DNA from: Myxococcales bacterium
Lineage (GTDB): Bacteria > Myxococcota_A > Polyangia > Polyangiales > DASUME01
Direction: 5' to 3'
Assembly: GCA_047601445.1 (NCBI GenBank)
Contig: JASGJH010000001.1
Location: forward strand, 6,464,001-6,528,000
DNA: 64,000 nucleotides
Of this stretch, positions 45,044-50,530 are shown piece by piece. The notes beneath the pieces are model-generated. The model made no database searches. It saw only the letters and a list, made by a program, of their open reading frames with translations, and was not told where the DNA came from. The position numbers were made by a program, and so were the translations under genes. The first letter of the stretch is position 1; each line of letters starts with the position of its first letter.

Positions 45044-45931
45044 TCAGGGAATTCCGCGCCACTTTGCGGCGTCGCGCACGAACAGTTCGGTGAGGAAGTC
45101 CATGCAGGCTCGCACACGGGCGACGCGCGTGAGGTCGGGATGCACTACCAGCAAGATGTCTCGCGCCCCCACCAGCTCGGGCACCAAGCGCACCAGGGAG
45201 TCGTCGCGATCGGCGGTGAAGCACGGCAGCGCCACGACGCCAAAGCCGTAGCTGCCCGCTGACTGCGCGGCCGCGATGCTGTTGGCTCTCAGCACCACGT
45301 TCGCCCCGCGTCCATGTCGCTGCAACCACTGAGCGCCGATGATGCTGGTCAGGCTCGTGTCGAAGCCGATCACGTCATGGCCCACCACGTCGGAGTGACT
45401 CGTCACCGGTCCCTTGCGCTCCAGGTACTTGGCCGAGGCGTAGAGTGACCAGCCCGCTTCCCCGAAGCGCTTCACCACGAGCTCCGGGTCCGTCACGTCG
45501 CGAAAGCGCACCGCGAGGTCCGCCTCGCCGCGTCGCAGATCGAGCTCGCGATTGTCGCTCAAGAGCTCCACGAGCAACCCCGGATGGAGCTCGCGCAGCA
45601 CGGCCAGCTCCTGCACCATGTAGGAGTCGATGGATTCGGGCACCGTGAGTCGCACGCTGCCTTCGACTCTGGAGTCTCCGCCGCGCACGCGGCGTGCCAC
45701 GGCTTCGGCATGTTCGAGCATGGCTTCGGCGTGGGGCAGGATATCGAGGCCGGCCGGCGTCAGATGGAGCCCTTCGGGCCCCCGCGTGAAGAGCTTCGTG
45801 CCGAGCGCAGTCTCGAGGGCACCGACTCGGCGGCTCACCGTGGTGTGTTCGCAGCCCAGGCTGCGCCCTGCGGCGACCCAGGTTTGAGCCTGAGCGGCGG
45901 CCAGGAAATAGCGGAGATCATTCCAGTCCAC
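45044..45931 (-). CDS. LysR family transcriptional regulator
   Basis: DWNDLRYF..TVSRRVGALETALGTKLF.R..LTPAG HTH; DLRRGEADLAVR; start set at GTG 45931. Confidence 0.92.
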   Translation of the reverse strand: MDWNDLRYFLAAAQAQTWVAAGRSLGCEHTTVSRRVGALETALGTKLFTRGPEGLHLTPAGLDILPHAEAMLEHAEAVARRVRGGDSRVEGSVRLTVPESIDSYMVQELAVLRELHPGLLVELLSDNRELDLRRGEADLAVRFRDVTDPELVVKRFGEAGWSLYASAKYLERKGPVTSHSDVVGHDVIGFDTSLTSIIGAQWLQRHGRGANVVLRANSIAAAQSAGSYGFGVVALPCFTADRDDSLVRLVPELVGARDILLVVHPDLTRVARVRACMDFLTELFVRDAAKWRGIP

Positions 45932-46024
45932 GGCAGGCGTGCAGGCTTGCACAGGGGCTGTGCGCAATCAATCCGCCAGAGTCTGCTCGGGGCTTGCGTA
46001 AGACCGCGCAAAGGACCTCACGCC

Positions 46025-46642
46025 ATGTCTTCACAGAAATCATTCTCTGCCCTCACACTCAGTTGGACCGGCACCGCGCTGCTCACGTGTCTTTCGATCA
46101 CGGCCTGCTCCAGCTCCGACGCTCCCAAGTCGCAGGCCCGGGAGCTCATGCCCAGTCAGCGCGACCGCGTCGCGCGCGGCGAGTATCTGGTCACCACCAG
46201 CGGCTGCCACGACTGTCATTCCCCCAAGGTGATGACCGAGCACGGGCCCGAACCAGATCCCAATCGCCTGATGTCGGGTCACCCGTCGGGCGAGGCACTG
46301 CCGCCGGTGGCGAGCACCGATCCTCGCTGGATCGCCTTCAGCATGGGGCTCACCGCCACGGTGGGCCCGTGGGGAGTCTCCCATGCGGCCAACCTCACGC
46401 CGGATGACACCGGCATCGGGACCTGGAGCTTCGAGCAATTCGAGACCGCGATTCGCCGCGGCAAGTCCAAGGGCCTGGTGGGTGCGCGCGACCTGCTGCC
46501 GCCCATGCCGTGGCCCATGTACAAGCACTTCAACGACGAAGACCTGCGCTCCATCTTCGCCTATTTGAAGTCGCTCAAGCCCGTGAAGAACCTGGTGCCC
46601 GCACCGATCCCGCCGGGGGCGGCGCCGCAGGTCGACGGCTGA
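46025..46642 (+). CDS. c-type cytochrome lipoprotein (single CXXCH)
   Basis: Lipobox ITAC; RGEYLV..GCHDCHSP, GPWG, NLTPD.TGIG.W, PPMPW, SIFAYLKSLKPV; start at ATG 46025. Confidence 0.87.
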   Translation: MSSQKSFSALTLSWTGTALLTCLSITACSSSDAPKSQARELMPSQRDRVARGEYLVTTSGCHDCHSPKVMTEHGPEPDPNRLMSGHPSGEALPPVASTDPRWIAFSMGLTATVGPWGVSHAANLTPDDTGIGTWSFEQFETAIRRGKSKGLVGARDLLPPMPWPMYKHFNDEDLRSIFAYLKSLKPVKNLVPAPIPPGAAPQVDG

Positions 46643-46680
46643 GTGCCCCCGTTCCCTGGCGGAGTTGCCGTTCGCCGGCC

Positions 46681-46779
46681 CCTGTTGTGCCGGCTGCAAC
46701 AGGTGTCGCCGACCACGCGACAGTTGGATGAGATGAAGCCTGGAAATTACGAGGGAATCGGATCGGTCCGAAGCTTGCT
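46681..46779 (+). promoter_or_regulatory. Putative sigma54 promoter with tandem enhancer palindromes upstream of globin
   Basis: TGTTG-N9-CAACA (46683-46701) and TGTCG-N9-CGACA (46704-46722), 21 bp apart; CGGTCCG-AAGC-TTGCT (GG-N10-GC) at 46764-46779. Confidence 0.55.
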
Positions 46780-46829
46780 GTAGGGGCTGGTACGGCTCGC
46801 ACGGGGCCGCCTACTCAAGGAGCACTCCG

Positions 46830-47243
46830 ATGGCACTCCAGGTCGACCTTCTGCGGCAGAGCTTCGAGCTCGTGGTGGAGCGGAACCCCGATCTCACGGT
46901 TCGATTCTATGAAATCCTGTTCGAGCGCTATCCGCAGCTGAAGCCGATGTTCGACCCGAGCCGGCGCGCCCAGCAGGCCAAGATGTTGGCCACCGCCTTG
47001 GGGGCCGTACTCGATCACCTGGAAGACGCCGCCTGGCTCGAAGCCCACCTGTCGGCGCTGGGCACCCGTCACGTGGACTACGGCGTGACCCACCAGATGT
47101 ACGACTGGGTCGGTGACTCGCTCTTGATCACGCTCGCCGAAGTGGCCGGCGGAGACTGGACTCCCCATCTCCAGGAAGCCTGGAGCGAGGCCTATGGCGC
47201 CATCGTGGGCTTGATGCTGCGACCGGCAGCGGCCGCCGAGTAA
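46830..47243 (+). CDS. Single-domain globin (flavohemoglobin-like 3/3 globin without reductase domain)
   Basis: RFYEILFERYP (B10 Tyr), PMF (CD1 Phe), AQQ (E7), LGTRH (F8 His), YGV..Y, AWSEAY; AAGGAG RBS. Confidence 0.92.
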   Translation: MALQVDLLRQSFELVVERNPDLTVRFYEILFERYPQLKPMFDPSRRAQQAKMLATALGAVLDHLEDAAWLEAHLSALGTRHVDYGVTHQMYDWVGDSLLITLAEVAGGDWTPHLQEAWSEAYGAIVGLMLRPAAAAE

Positions 47244-47260
47244 TGCGGTGGAGGAGCGCG

Positions 47261-48766
47261 CTACAACGACGGACGGGAGGAGCGCTTGTTGCCGGTGTTC
47301 ATCCCTCGCTGCATGGCGCTGGAGATCTGTTGGTAGGCACCGGTCCACGCCGCGTTGAGCGCCGGGTTCCAGTGCGCGGAATCGAACTCGGCCAGGCTCT
47401 CGAGCAGCGCCGTGCCCACGTCGTCGAAGTCGGTCGCGCGCACGCCGTAGAGGGCATGTCGACGACCCAGCTCTTCCAGCAGCGGCGTGAGGCGTTCGGG
47501 GCGGTCGAGGTGTTCGAGGGCGAGCTGCAGGGCACCCACGAGCTTGAGCTGTTGTTCTCCCAGGTCGGCCGGGAACAGCCCACGCACGTCGGGACGGGCC
47601 TCGAAGAGGCGCGCGTAGAAGCGGGCCGTCAGTTCCACCGCGCGGGATTCGATGCGGGCGAACGACGCCACCACGAGCTTTTGGCCGCCATCAGGGGCGC
47701 TGGACGGTGCGCGCTGCACCAGCCGCAGCAGCCGCTCGAGGTCCTCCAGGGCGCCGCACAGCTCGATCGCGGTGGGAAAGCGCAAGCTGGGATCGCGCTT
47801 GAGGGAGCGGTCGACGATCTCCGCGAGCATCGCCGGCACCTCCGGGACCAGGCTCGCCAGCGGAGCGGGATCGCGAAACGCGGGATCACGCAGGCCTTCT
47901 CCCGGCCCGATGGTCCCGCGCGGGGGCGAGCCGGTGCACAGCTCGTGCAGCACGAGGCCGAGGCTGTAGACGTCGGAGCGCGCGTCGCCGAGGCCGAGCC
48001 AGACTTCGGGCGCCACGTAGAGCGGCGTGCCGAGGATCATGCCGGGTGCGGTGAGTCCCTCGGCCGCTCCCAAACTCCATTGCTCGTGGGCGCCAAGCTC
48101 TCCGGTTTGCTTCCAGGAATCGGAGATCGGCTGACTGTCCGACGGTTTCAGCGCGCTGTCGGAGTCGGCCGCGCGGGCGGCGGCGCCGAGTGGCAGGGTC
48201 GCGGCAGCGTTGCCTTCGTGCCAGGGCGTGACCGGTTGCCACGAGACCCGCGAGTTAGGGCCGAGCGAGAACTTGGCCAGACCGAAGTCGAGCAGCTTCA
48301 CCACACCGCTGGCATCGACCATGGCATTGGCGGGCTTGATGTCGCGGTGGACCGTGCCCGAGCGATGGACCGCCGAGAGGCCACGCGCCAATCCGAGGGC
48401 GAGATCGAAGACGCGGCGCCAGTGGACCGGTCGCGGGATTTGCTCGAGGCTCTCCCCCTCCACGAACTCGTAGGCGATGTAGGGGCGACCCAGCACGTCA
48501 CCGATGCGATAGATGGCGACCACATTGGGATGCTGCAGGCGCGCGATGGCCTGGGCCTCGACCAGAAAGCGACCGCGCAGGGCCAGGTCCGGCTTACCGG
48601 CGATGAACTTGAGCGCCACGCGCCGGTCGAGCAGCGTGTCGTGTCCGAGGTAGACGTGGCCCATGCCGCCGCGACCGAGCGGCCGGATGACCTTGAACTC
48701 ATCCACCTGTCCGGAGGGGGTCCACTCCTCTGAAGCTGTGCCGAAGCTATCCACGAGTGACGACAA
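47261..48766 (-). CDS. Ser/Thr protein kinase with C-terminal globin domain
   Basis: LGRGGMG, VALK, HRDIKPAN, DFGLAK, GTPLYVAPE, SDVYSLG; C-terminal RFYARLFEARP..LF..QQ..LGRRH..YGV..AWTGAY; start TTG 48766 or GTG 48754 (ORF track 48898). Confidence 0.9.
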   Translation of the reverse strand: MSSLVDSFGTASEEWTPSGQVDEFKVIRPLGRGGMGHVYLGHDTLLDRRVALKFIAGKPDLALRGRFLVEAQAIARLQHPNVVAIYRIGDVLGRPYIAYEFVEGESLEQIPRPVHWRRVFDLALGLARGLSAVHRSGTVHRDIKPANAMVDASGVVKLLDFGLAKFSLGPNSRVSWQPVTPWHEGNAAATLPLGAAARAADSDSALKPSDSQPISDSWKQTGELGAHEQWSLGAAEGLTAPGMILGTPLYVAPEVWLGLGDARSDVYSLGLVLHELCTGSPPRGTIGPGEGLRDPAFRDPAPLASLVPEVPAMLAEIVDRSLKRDPSLRFPTAIELCGALEDLERLLRLVQRAPSSAPDGGQKLVVASFARIESRAVELTARFYARLFEARPDVRGLFPADLGEQQLKLVGALQLALEHLDRPERLTPLLEELGRRHALYGVRATDFDDVGTALLESLAEFDSAHWNPALNAAWTGAYQQISSAMQRGMNTGNKRSSRPSL

Positions 48767-48824
48767 CCGGCCGCATCCTACTTGGATCCCAGGGCCGGGA
48801 GCAAACCGTCTGAGGTGAAAAACC

Positions 48825-50216
48825 CTACTTGAGTCCGGCGCGCCACAGCAGTCGGTAAAATTGTGCGCGATCCAACCCTGCAGCGCGCGCGGCGGCACTC
48901 ACGTTTCCTGCGTGTCGTGCGAGTAGGGCGGTCAGGTAGCGACGCTCGAGCTGGCTGCTCCAGCGCTCCCGGGACTCGCGGTAAGGCAGACTCGGATCGA
49001 TCAGGGCGTCGAGCGAGTCTGACGAATCTGGAGGGGTGGCGTCGAGGTTCGCGGGTACGGCCGTCTGATGCAAGATGCAGCGCTCGAGGTAGTTGCGAAG
49101 TTCGCGCACATTGCCTGGCCAGCGATGACGGGCGAGCTCGCTCAAGAACGCCGGGGAGCGCAGGAACGAAAGCTCAGCACGCTCGGGGTCGTGGCCGAGT
49201 TTGCGCAAGAGATGCGGGACCAATACCGCGAAGTCTTCGCTGCGCTCGCGCAGGGGTGGCAACCTCACCTCCAGCACCGCCAAGCGGAAGAAGAGATCGC
49301 TGCGGAAGCGGCGCGCGTTGACCTCGGCCCGGAGGTCTCGGTGAGTGGCGGCGATGACCCGCACGTCCACTTGCTGCGTGCGGTCGCTGCCCACGGGCTT
49401 GATGGTGTGTCGTTCGAGGACCCGCAGCAGCTTGGGTTGAAGCTCCAGGTCGAGCTCCCCGATCTCGTCCAGCAGCAAGGTGCCGCCGTGCGCCGCCGCG
49501 AAGGCTCCCTGGCGTGTGCCCGTGGCGCCGGTGAAAGCGCCCTTCTCGTGCCCGAATAACTCGCTCTCGAGCAACGCACCGGGGATCGCTCCGCAGTCGA
49601 CTACCACGAAGGGACCATCGCGGCGCGGGCTCTGATCGTGCAGGGCCTCCGCCACGGCTTCCTTGCCCGTGCCCGTCTCTCCCAGCACGAGCACGGTGGA
49701 TTCGCTGGCCCCCACGCGCTCGAGCAGTGCGAACACCTGCCGCATCGCGAGCGAGCTACCGACCATGTCACCGAACACGCTCTGGGTGGAGAGCGGCACC
49801 CGCAGGGAGCCCGGGTCGAGCTCCACGCGCAGGCGGGTCCGGCCCACCTCCACGACCGAGCCAGGCCGAAGCCGCGCGTGCAGCACCGAGACGCCGTCCA
49901 GGCGCGTGCCATTGCGACTCCCCAGATCGCGCACGTGGACTTCATTGCCCACCACGCTGAGCTCGCAATGAAAGCGCGACACCGTGGGGTCTTCGAGGCA
50001 GATGGGGGCACCCTTGGCCGACCCGATGGCGAACTGGGATGCCGGAGCGACGAAGCGCGTGCCCTTTTGGTTTCCGTCGAGCACCACGAGAGCCAGCTGG
50101 CGCACCATGGCGTGGGGACCGTCCGGCGCCTCGAGCATGAGCGTGGACAGGCCCGTAATGGCTTGCTCTGGCGCGTGGGACTCGGGCTCGTCGTCGGCGG
50201 AATTCACGGCGAACAT
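48825..50216 (-). CDS. FHA-domain sigma54-dependent enhancer-binding protein (Fis-type HTH)
   Basis: [66 protein letters not shown]. Confidence 0.95.
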
Positions 50217-50379
50217 AGTACTAGAGCGCGCGTGTCCACGCGCAAGCTGGGTTGGCAGGTGAAGGGCGAATTGCGTGCTTGCCGTGCCGAGTTGTTCTGG
50301 TTAACTCAGTTACAGAGCCCGCTGCGGCGCAGCGATCTGCCGGACCCTCGGCAGCCAAGCACTCTTTGTTTTGCGCGGC

Positions 50380-50530
50380 GCGCTCGGGGCGCCCAGCACT
50401 CGTGTCGCGCTCGGAGCGCCCGGCACTCGTCTCTTCGCGTAGTGCGCTCGATATTTCTGCTCGCGCAGTACGCTCGATATTTCTGCTCGCGCAGTACGCT
50501 CGATATTTCTGCTCGCGCAATGCGCTCGAC
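50380..50530. repeat. Short tandem repeats in divergent intergenic region (2 x 27 bp, 3 x 26 bp)
   Basis: CGCTCGATATTTCTGCTCGCGCAGTA at 50445, 50471, 50497; GCGCTCGGRGCGCCCRGCACTCGT twice before it. Confidence 0.9.

Follow-up and report, generated by a model that had tools for sequence, protein, structure and literature searches.

We analysed a 64,000-nucleotide stretch of the genome of a Myxococcales bacterium (assembly GCA_047601445.1, contig JASGJH010000001.1, forward-strand positions 6,464,001 to 6,528,000; hereafter the window, whose numbering is used for all unprefixed coordinates), with a focus on a soluble protein kinase that carries a globin domain and on the two genes beside it. The genome is assembled as a single contig of 9.5 Mb with 66% GC. 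According to open reading frame (ORF) calls and Pfam, the locus holds three intact genes in 3.5 kb, all of which encode soluble proteins. The first encodes a sigma54 enhancer-binding protein (EBP) of the FHA-AAA+(GAFTGA)-HTH type (48825-50216, minus strand, 463 residues; FHA E 1.5e-14, Sigma54_activat E 7e-67, HTH_8). On the same strand, 58 nt past the EBP stop codon, the second gene starts with TTG at 48766, as in the protein collection record P0001, and encodes a Hanks-type Ser/Thr kinase with a C-terminal F-family globin (47261-48766, 501 residues; Pkinase E 6e-33, Globin E 6e-16). The third gene is convergent with these, its stop codon lying 17 nt from that of the kinase-globin, and encodes a free single-domain F-family globin (46830-47243, plus strand, 137 residues; PF00042 E 2e-17), which is the predicted output gene. 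Two palindromes and a GG-N10-GC element precede the free globin. The ORFs, Pfam and the sequence itself bear out the layout described in the first-pass annotation, that is, an FHA-AAA+-HTH activator, a kinase-globin lacking a transmembrane segment and a convergent globin with these upstream elements.

The kinase domain (about residues 20-345; 47732-48709, minus strand) has an intact Gly loop, Lys, HRD, DFG and APE, and its activation segment of 81 residues is predicted to be mostly disordered, with disorder at about residues 166-239 of the structural model. In this model (pLDDT 82, pTM 0.69), a PknB-like bilobal kinase is connected through a short linker to a helical globin, and the modelled kinase matches the PknB structure (E 6e-17). 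No membrane helix was found in the kinase-globin, the top 19-residue hydropathy being 1.23. By its motifs and modelled fold, the protein is a Hanks-type Ser/Thr kinase, and phosphotransfer is predicted. The fused globin domain (about residues 361-495; 47282-47686, minus strand) has Tyr384 at B10, Phe398 at CD1, Gln405 at E7, Lys408 at E10, Leu409 at E11 and His437 at F8, and the free globin has TyrB10, PheCD1, GlnE7, MetE10, LeuE11 and HisF8; with TyrB10, PheCD1, GlnE7, LeuE11 and HisF8 in both, the two are 3/3 globins of the F family that are predicted to bind haem. The nearest solved structures of the fused domain are likewise F-family globins, namely HGbRL (the best PDB match, 3wfw, E 1e-28), flavohaemoglobin and Vitreoscilla haemoglobin. 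The two globins of the locus share 39% identity and the fused domains form their own tree branch, which indicates that the fusion is no recent copy of the neighbouring globin. The two groups also differ at E10, where 22 of 24 fused domains have Lys whereas 38 of 38 free globins from the output clade have Met; in HGbRL, Lys(E10) is a haem ligand as long as the protein is in its closed form, and is displaced when a ligand binds (PMC4476040).

The first-pass annotation had proposed a search for proteins of the same Pkinase plus Globin architecture, and such proteins turned out to be numerous. When 1.84 billion representatives were searched with a profile covering the kinase C-lobe and the globin, the best 150 matches were taken; at least 65 proteins, among 158 collected, span kinase and globin in one stretch. 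HisF8 is conserved in 65 of these 65 fusions, TyrB10 in 63, PheCD1 in 62, GlnE7 in 59 and LysE10 in 53, and the catalytic loop is visible in 49, the remainder being mostly short records that start after it. The kinase-globin fusion is thus, by sequence, a family and not a one-off oddity, and relatives of the window protein carry the source labels Polyangiales, Myxococcales and Polyangiaceae. One member (P0191, WP_053231050.1) belongs to a species available in culture, labelled Sandaracinus amylolyticus by the source. When contigs were scanned with the full alignment, whose patterns lay in the kinase domain, no globin match was present in the four top loci checked. A metagenome scan with the globin domain yielded 52 loci, none of them from the close clade of the window; it gave a divergent kinase-globin (L189, 17-1468) and an EBP-globin cluster (L169). 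Further combinations of kinase and globin were encountered as well: a kinase-LRR-globin architecture at L213:5223-8603, L215:5265-8504, L217:5098-8397 and L220:7808-10996, and a kinase-2Fe2S-cyclase-like-globin architecture at L219:5693-8062. At the top of the C-lobe-globin profile search stood very long proteins with up to 14 tandem globin-region matches (P0011-P0018 and P0021-P0027).

The region upstream of the free globin bears on how this gene may be controlled. Palindrome 1 (TGTTG-N9-CAACA, 46683-46701, plus strand) is the predicted EBP site, and palindrome 2 (TGTCG-N9-CGACA, 46704-46722, plus strand) follows it with a period of 21 nt. The predicted sigma54 -24/-12 promoter (GG-N10-GC with TTGC at -12; 46764-46779, plus strand) lies 41 nt after palindrome 2, and the Shine-Dalgarno sequence of the globin is at 46817. 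Across the 9.5 Mb genome there is a single instance of this tandem palindrome pattern, whether it is matched exactly or with one mismatch per copy. The sigma54-like site obtains 6 points on an 8-point scheme that we derived from a consensus, and 41 of 5000 random 100-nt stretches did as well. Closer to the start codon, another -24-like word was rejected for its wrong spacing and low score, and neither a sigma70 promoter nor a terminator was called in the globin upstream region. The sigma54 gene itself is present in the genome, so that tandem palindromes, a -24/-12 promoter and the cognate sigma factor, the hallmarks of enhancer-binding systems, can all be predicted computationally. The EBP likewise has Walker A and B motifs, the GAFTGA loop and a C-terminal HTH.

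Comparison with relatives of the EBP, taken as its 18 best non-self matches among 400 genomes of the order, connects this promoter to the activator. In the 213 kb surrounding these relatives, the palindrome derived from the window, together with a sigma54 site scoring at least 6 of 8, was found 8 times, at 6 of 18 loci. The 1,219 kb of control sequence, from 116 myxobacterial loci that in many cases contain other EBPs, gave 1 site at 1 locus. The spacing recurs too, with the 21-nt period matched in L235 and L238 and the 41-nt promoter distance in L236 and L238. In a ranking by a matrix built from 12 of the relatives' sites, the window pair comes third in the genome, in a comparison that is not independent because the sites were picked with the window pattern. 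Among the activators found by a pattern search of the genome's ORFs, the window EBP alone has the recognition helix of the subfamily. Together, these comparisons give strong support to the EBP acting at the sigma54 promoter of the globin.

The input side of the EBP is best considered from its FHA domain (49824-50096, minus strand), which aligns with that of GarA without gaps and retains S-R-x-H and N-G, both invariant in 9 of 9 aligned rows. The first-pass annotation had cautioned that the first FHA motif reads GS rather than GR, and this is correct: G-R after the third strand, the canonical feature, is absent from the window EBP and from all 18 of its relatives, which makes GS a trait of the subfamily and not decay of this copy. 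In front of the domain, the N-terminal tail contains a T-x-x-L motif with Thr25 (50133-50147, minus strand), a candidate phosphorylation site suggested by the alignment and by analogy with DgcB and GarA (PMC6733907). When 18 EBPs, including that of the window and leaving out L242, were aligned on the FHA domain, T-x-x-[LIVM] stood 52-60 residues before S-R-x-H in 16; in 5000 shuffles the number averaged 3.2 and never exceeded 10, for a motif and interval chosen post hoc from the sequences. The phosphorylated N-terminal tail of DgcB and of GarA/OdhI docks in the protein's own FHA domain and thereby switches output, and the DgcB pocket uses Ser, Arg, Thr and His (PMC6733907). The tail of the EBP occupies the same position, and docking of a phosphorylated tail is predicted on this analogy. 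Docking motifs of the T-x-x-L type in the activation insert of the kinase were also counted; 26 of 50 sequences had them, where shuffling gave 20.8 on average and 49 of 1000 shuffles reached the observed number, and this weak signal was set aside. A complex prediction for the kinase-globin, haem and the first 140 residues of the EBP scored 0.16 against a mark of 0.32, which we treat as neutral, and no kinase-FHA-EBP fusion was present among 12 matches to the EBP N-terminus, a sample that makes for weak evidence.

Gene neighbourhoods connect the two proteins from both sides. A search of our own counted 147 kinases and 11 FHA-type EBPs in the window genome. For the kinase-globin family, fusion loci were defined by long-frame globin matches (G682, G661, G684 and some lower matches were left out), and 27 other loci were counted, including one, L207, with a doubtful frame and no kinase match. 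Of the 27, 11 (11 of 26 without L207) have an FHA-type EBP no more than 1.5 kb away, and 13 have one within 5 kb, with the proviso that kin among these loci are not statistically independent, on which account a Fisher test was set aside; within 1.5 kb of the other kinases of the window genome, the figure is 5 of 146 (6 of 147 when the window kinase is included). Conversely, 15 of the 18 EBP relatives have a Ser/Thr kinase match, one of them weak, inside the 12-kb locus. The EBP-adjacent fusions are spread over several branches and are accompanied by three types of EBP, namely the GAFTGA type of the window, a GAYSGA type whose FHA domain has G-R, and an atypical type whose loops are NYPNxG-like and whose N-terminus resembles an FHA domain. 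The circuit that the first-pass annotation had proposed is thus supported in part: the step from the EBP to the sigma54 globin promoter has good comparative support, a step from the kinase to the EBP is backed by the co-occurrence of the two, seen from either side, together with the conserved Thr tail, and for a putative step from gas to kinase the haem ligands are conserved.

The complete arrangement of fusion, EBP and free globin is repeated in five other clusters (L012, L193, L197, L218 and L196/L252), in each case with the atypical EBP, and the globins of these clusters have sigma54-like sites scoring 5-6 together with tandem GTGCGCGCAC palindromes. Since both the EBP lineage and the palindrome differ from those of the window, the design recurs while activator and site change together. 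Conservation of the neighbourhood, on which the first-pass annotation had staked its reading, accordingly holds in part: the three-part design is found in five other genomes, and it is found there with another EBP lineage, with none of the 18 EBP relatives near a globin and with no fusion found by the queries used in nine genomes of the same genus. The atypical activators resemble sigma54 activators in sequence, have an FHA-like N-terminus (hhalign 67.5%, E 5e-5) and form a clade (L012:8286-9701, L193:2714-4168, L197:9903-11327, L218:9845-11284, L281, L299, L301 and L306, and G000:C1:4020419-4022059 in the window genome) that adjoins globins with sigma54-like sites and the tandem GTGCGCGCAC motif. 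Among 60 further globin loci, picked by sequence similarity only, five output-type globins stand beside an atypical EBP (recognised from its C-terminus alone at L273); all five have the GTGCGCGCAC palindrome and three score 7-8. By comparison, a sigma54 score of at least 6 is reached by 0 of 10 globins of this clade that are linked to Rrf2 genes. At six loci (L134:6552-8267, L169:537-932, L273, L281, L299 and L306), a second free globin, from a separate branch of small globins with mostly Phe at E11, lies directly beside the atypical EBP, and no fusion was seen in the fetched stretch; this pairing suggests a split form of the sensor. At L260:2042, L276:3967 and L282:3948, globins with GTGCGCGCAC and a sigma54-like site have no EBP within about 4 kb and are likely regulated from elsewhere.

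Globins of the output clade are also found under other kinds of control. The genome has a second globin (G000:C1:2764565-2765546) that is 61% identical to the free globin, is divergent from an Rrf2 repressor gene and has an AT-rich inverted repeat with no strong sigma54 site, a state that is usual in the genus sample (L226-L229). The proposal that the circuit is an alternative to NsrR control fits with this sister globin beside an Rrf2 repressor, and falls short in that the repressor, which has three Cys, passes the Rrf2 superfamily cut-off only and stays below that of NsrR. Regulators that combine a winged helix, an ATPase and a globin in one protein stand beside an output-clade globin at L131:7842-9980, L223:5764-8010 and L230:7050-9137 and appear, from their domain composition, to be a third way of controlling it. 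In the metagenome contigs L151, L154, L156, L157, L172 and L178, free globins are divergent from large Ser/Thr kinases.

Taken together, we propose that the three genes form a loop in which a gas, likely nitric oxide (NO), acts through the kinase and the EBP on the globin, a reading to which we assign a probability of roughly 45%. The fused globin would bind haem through His437, and Lys408 at E10 may be an internal sixth ligand that is displaced by the incoming gas, as in HGbRL. The short linker would relay the change at the haem to the C-lobe of the kinase, with either activation or inhibition as the outcome. The kinase would then phosphorylate Thr25, and phospho-Thr25 would dock in the FHA domain of its own or a neighbouring subunit and so free the AAA+ domain, for which DgcB and GarA/OdhI offer a precedent. 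The EBP would bind both palindromes and open the sigma54 promoter, the step with strong comparative support, and the free globin would remove NO or buffer O2, closing a feedback loop. Given a gas, NO is more likely than O2: a little over half of the weight goes to NO, about a third to O2 and about a tenth to carbon monoxide (CO) or redox. A broader idea, which we offer tentatively and as less probable than the loop itself, is that myxobacteria run a whole class of gas pathways on threonine phosphorylation, leading from a haem-globin Hanks kinase through the tail of an FHA activator to a sigma54-dependent globin gene, and that such pathways arose repeatedly, from differing lineages of activator and differing binding sites, including activators that lack GAFTGA and yet act at sigma54 promoters, and with the sensor fused or separate.

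Several observations weigh against the proposed loop. No EBP lies within 5 kb in 14 of the 27 fusion loci and no free globin is adjacent in 22 (it is adjacent in 5), globins are near the EBP relatives in 0 of 18 loci, and the fusion was not found, with the queries used, in the nine genomes of the same genus. The exact trio is seen once, the closest fusions (P0002-P0005) being known without genomic context, and the EBP partners in the other complete clusters lack GAFTGA. Six of the 11 FHA-type EBPs in this genome adjoin kinases; such EBPs are generic neighbours of kinases, so adjacency alone says little. The FHA domain of the EBP lacks the first Arg, and the Thr-tail motif was defined after the fact. 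Tandem palindromes of the window type also occur at G000:C1:7076869, 516612, 515844 and 4205883, ahead of genes for two lipoprotein-like proteins with short repeats, one subtilase-like protein and one 878-residue exported protein; the promoters at 7076869, 516612 and 4205883 fit the motif, have sigma54 sites and precede secreted proteins, and the matrix places two of these three pairs above the globin pair and one below it. The regulon of the EBP may thus be wider, or the motif may be shared by a paralogue, for example that at 2663645 with 49% identity. Two further points bear on the signal: an extra alpha/beta-hydrolase-like domain, recognised by pattern, is present in 29 of the 65 fusions (other members have NTPase or cNMP-binding domains), so that other inputs may matter, and the scores of the Rrf2 neighbours of the sister globins below the NsrR cut-off weaken the case for NO.

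Many of these points are shared by a competing account, unlikely in our estimate yet deserving serious attention, in which the modules are loosely linked: the kinase-globin would sense through its haem and act on other substrates, the EBP or its paralogue, activated by other kinases, would have the globin promoter as one of several targets, and the cluster would be a recent assembly. The absence of an EBP neighbour from over half of the fusions, the EBP subfamily that adjoins unrelated kinases and never a globin in 18 loci, the three promoters of secreted proteins, and the sheer number of kinases and FHA-type EBPs in the genome would all be expected from such an arrangement. It is harder to reconcile with an FHA-type EBP being some 12 times commoner as a neighbour of the fusions than of other kinases here, and with the trio of kinase-globin, EBP and sigma54-controlled globin having been assembled with another EBP lineage as well. 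A second alternative, to which we give a little less credence, accepts the circuit and replaces its input: the fused globin would sense a hydrophobic ligand, haem supply or redox, or would shield the kinase from NO. Its appeal lies in the hydrolase-like domain of many fusions and in the large pockets of HGbRL and flavohaemoglobins, which accept imidazole, azoles or lipid (PMC4476040); however, the fusions conserve TyrB10 and GlnE7, a pair that is typical of bacterial globins binding O2, and the regulated gene is a globin whose clade sits elsewhere under Rrf2 repressors. Very improbable, finally, is that the palindromes are chance or an RNA hairpin ending the transcript of the cytochrome c gene, with the globin expressed by read-through and the EBP a bystander, for although palindrome 1 extends to 16-nt arms with 81% complementarity and lies 40 nt past the end of the cytochrome c gene, which is on the same strand, the palindromes have no T-run and no terminator call, and the motif, the 21-nt period and the 41-nt sigma54 distance recur at the EBP relatives.

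With respect to the flanks of the locus, the c-type cytochrome gene and a divergent LysR regulator gene occupy 45044-46642, and this pair was not seen as a conserved neighbour of the circuit genes. Upstream of the EBP lie three 26-nt tandem repeats (50430-50529) and two 27-nt repeats (50374-50427).

In the bacterial gas sensors known to use haem, the signal goes to histidine kinases, chemoreceptors, cyclases or transcription factors. Myxobacteria possess very many Ser/Thr kinases and FHA-type sigma54 activators, the signals and wiring of which are mostly unknown; Jelsbak et al. (2005) reportedly proposed that the FHA-AAA+-HTH activators of M. xanthus link Ser/Thr kinases to sigma54 genes, and to our knowledge an input signal, a phosphosite and a direct promoter have never been tied together for the FHA-domain EBPs of that species. 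The present locus offers candidates for all three, and since its 3.5 kb combine a candidate input (a gas), Thr25 as candidate phosphosite, a binding site that can be predicted and a promoter suited to a reporter, the long-standing hypothesis of a kinase acting through an FHA-type EBP on sigma54 transcription becomes directly testable. If the loop is real, a flavohaemoglobin-type globin acts as a C-terminal sensor, and gas sensing proceeds via threonine phosphorylation, a route not found in the literature searched. The first-pass annotation knew of no characterised example, and the search agrees, in that no described globin-gated bacterial Ser/Thr kinase was found. A full-text search likewise found no paper on a Ser/Thr kinase-globin fusion, with the limit that it did not cover subscription globin surveys and supplements, which may list the architecture. 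The words 'globin' and 'heme' are absent from the main text of a bacterial kinase atlas preprint, the fusion is absent from the passages available of PMC1457004 and PMC8717448, and the accessible parts of PMC11980068 and PMC2875238 hold general FHA content and a citation only.

NorR is a sigma54 activator of NO-defence genes, and NsrR also controls NO-detoxifying genes. The EBP is likewise a sigma54 activator, and Rrf2 repressors flank sister globins of its output gene; unlike NorR, it has an FHA domain in place of the GAF iron site (NorR NCBIfam 312 bits against a cut-off of 476), and sensing would take place in a separate kinase. Globin-coupled sensors resemble the kinase-globin in having a globin fused to a signalling output; their globins are N-terminal and of the S family (PMC7475203), whereas here an F-family globin is C-terminal to the kinase, which places the protein outside that definition. 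HGbRL of Methylacidiphilum infernorum is a putative sensor whose F-type globin shares TyrB10, GlnE7 and LysE10 with the fused domain, and differs in its N-terminal globin, its Roadblock/LC7 output, the lack of a kinase and its described confinement to one genus (PMC4476040). In DgcB of Bdellovibrio and in GarA/OdhI, an FHA domain follows a disordered tail with a phospho-Thr, as proposed here; what is switched in those proteins is a diguanylate cyclase or a metabolic inhibitor, and no kinase was identified for DgcB (PMC6733907). Here, by contrast, the output is a sigma54 activator, the FHA domain lacks the first Arg and a candidate kinase lies next door.

A close functional parallel is NmpRSTU of Myxococcus xanthus, together with AfGcHK, where a soluble haem-globin kinase controls a sigma54 EBP that binds tandem palindromes and drives oxygen-use genes, including one for an O2-binding protein (PMC11841059). 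That system is described there as using a histidine kinase, a protoglobin sensor, an Asp phosphorelay, an EBP with a receiver domain and a GCGCA-N5-TGCGC site (PMC11841059), whereas the present locus has a Hanks kinase, a C-terminal F-family globin, an FHA-type EBP and a different palindrome; none of the NmpRSTU domains was detected by Pfam at the locus, and GCGCA-N5-TGCGC was not seen on reading through 46643-46829. As far as the sequences allow us to judge, the three genes described here work like the globin kinase and sigma54 activator of NmpRSTU/AfGcHK and are not a member of that system, since they differ from it in kinase class, globin family, domain order, receiver and binding site.

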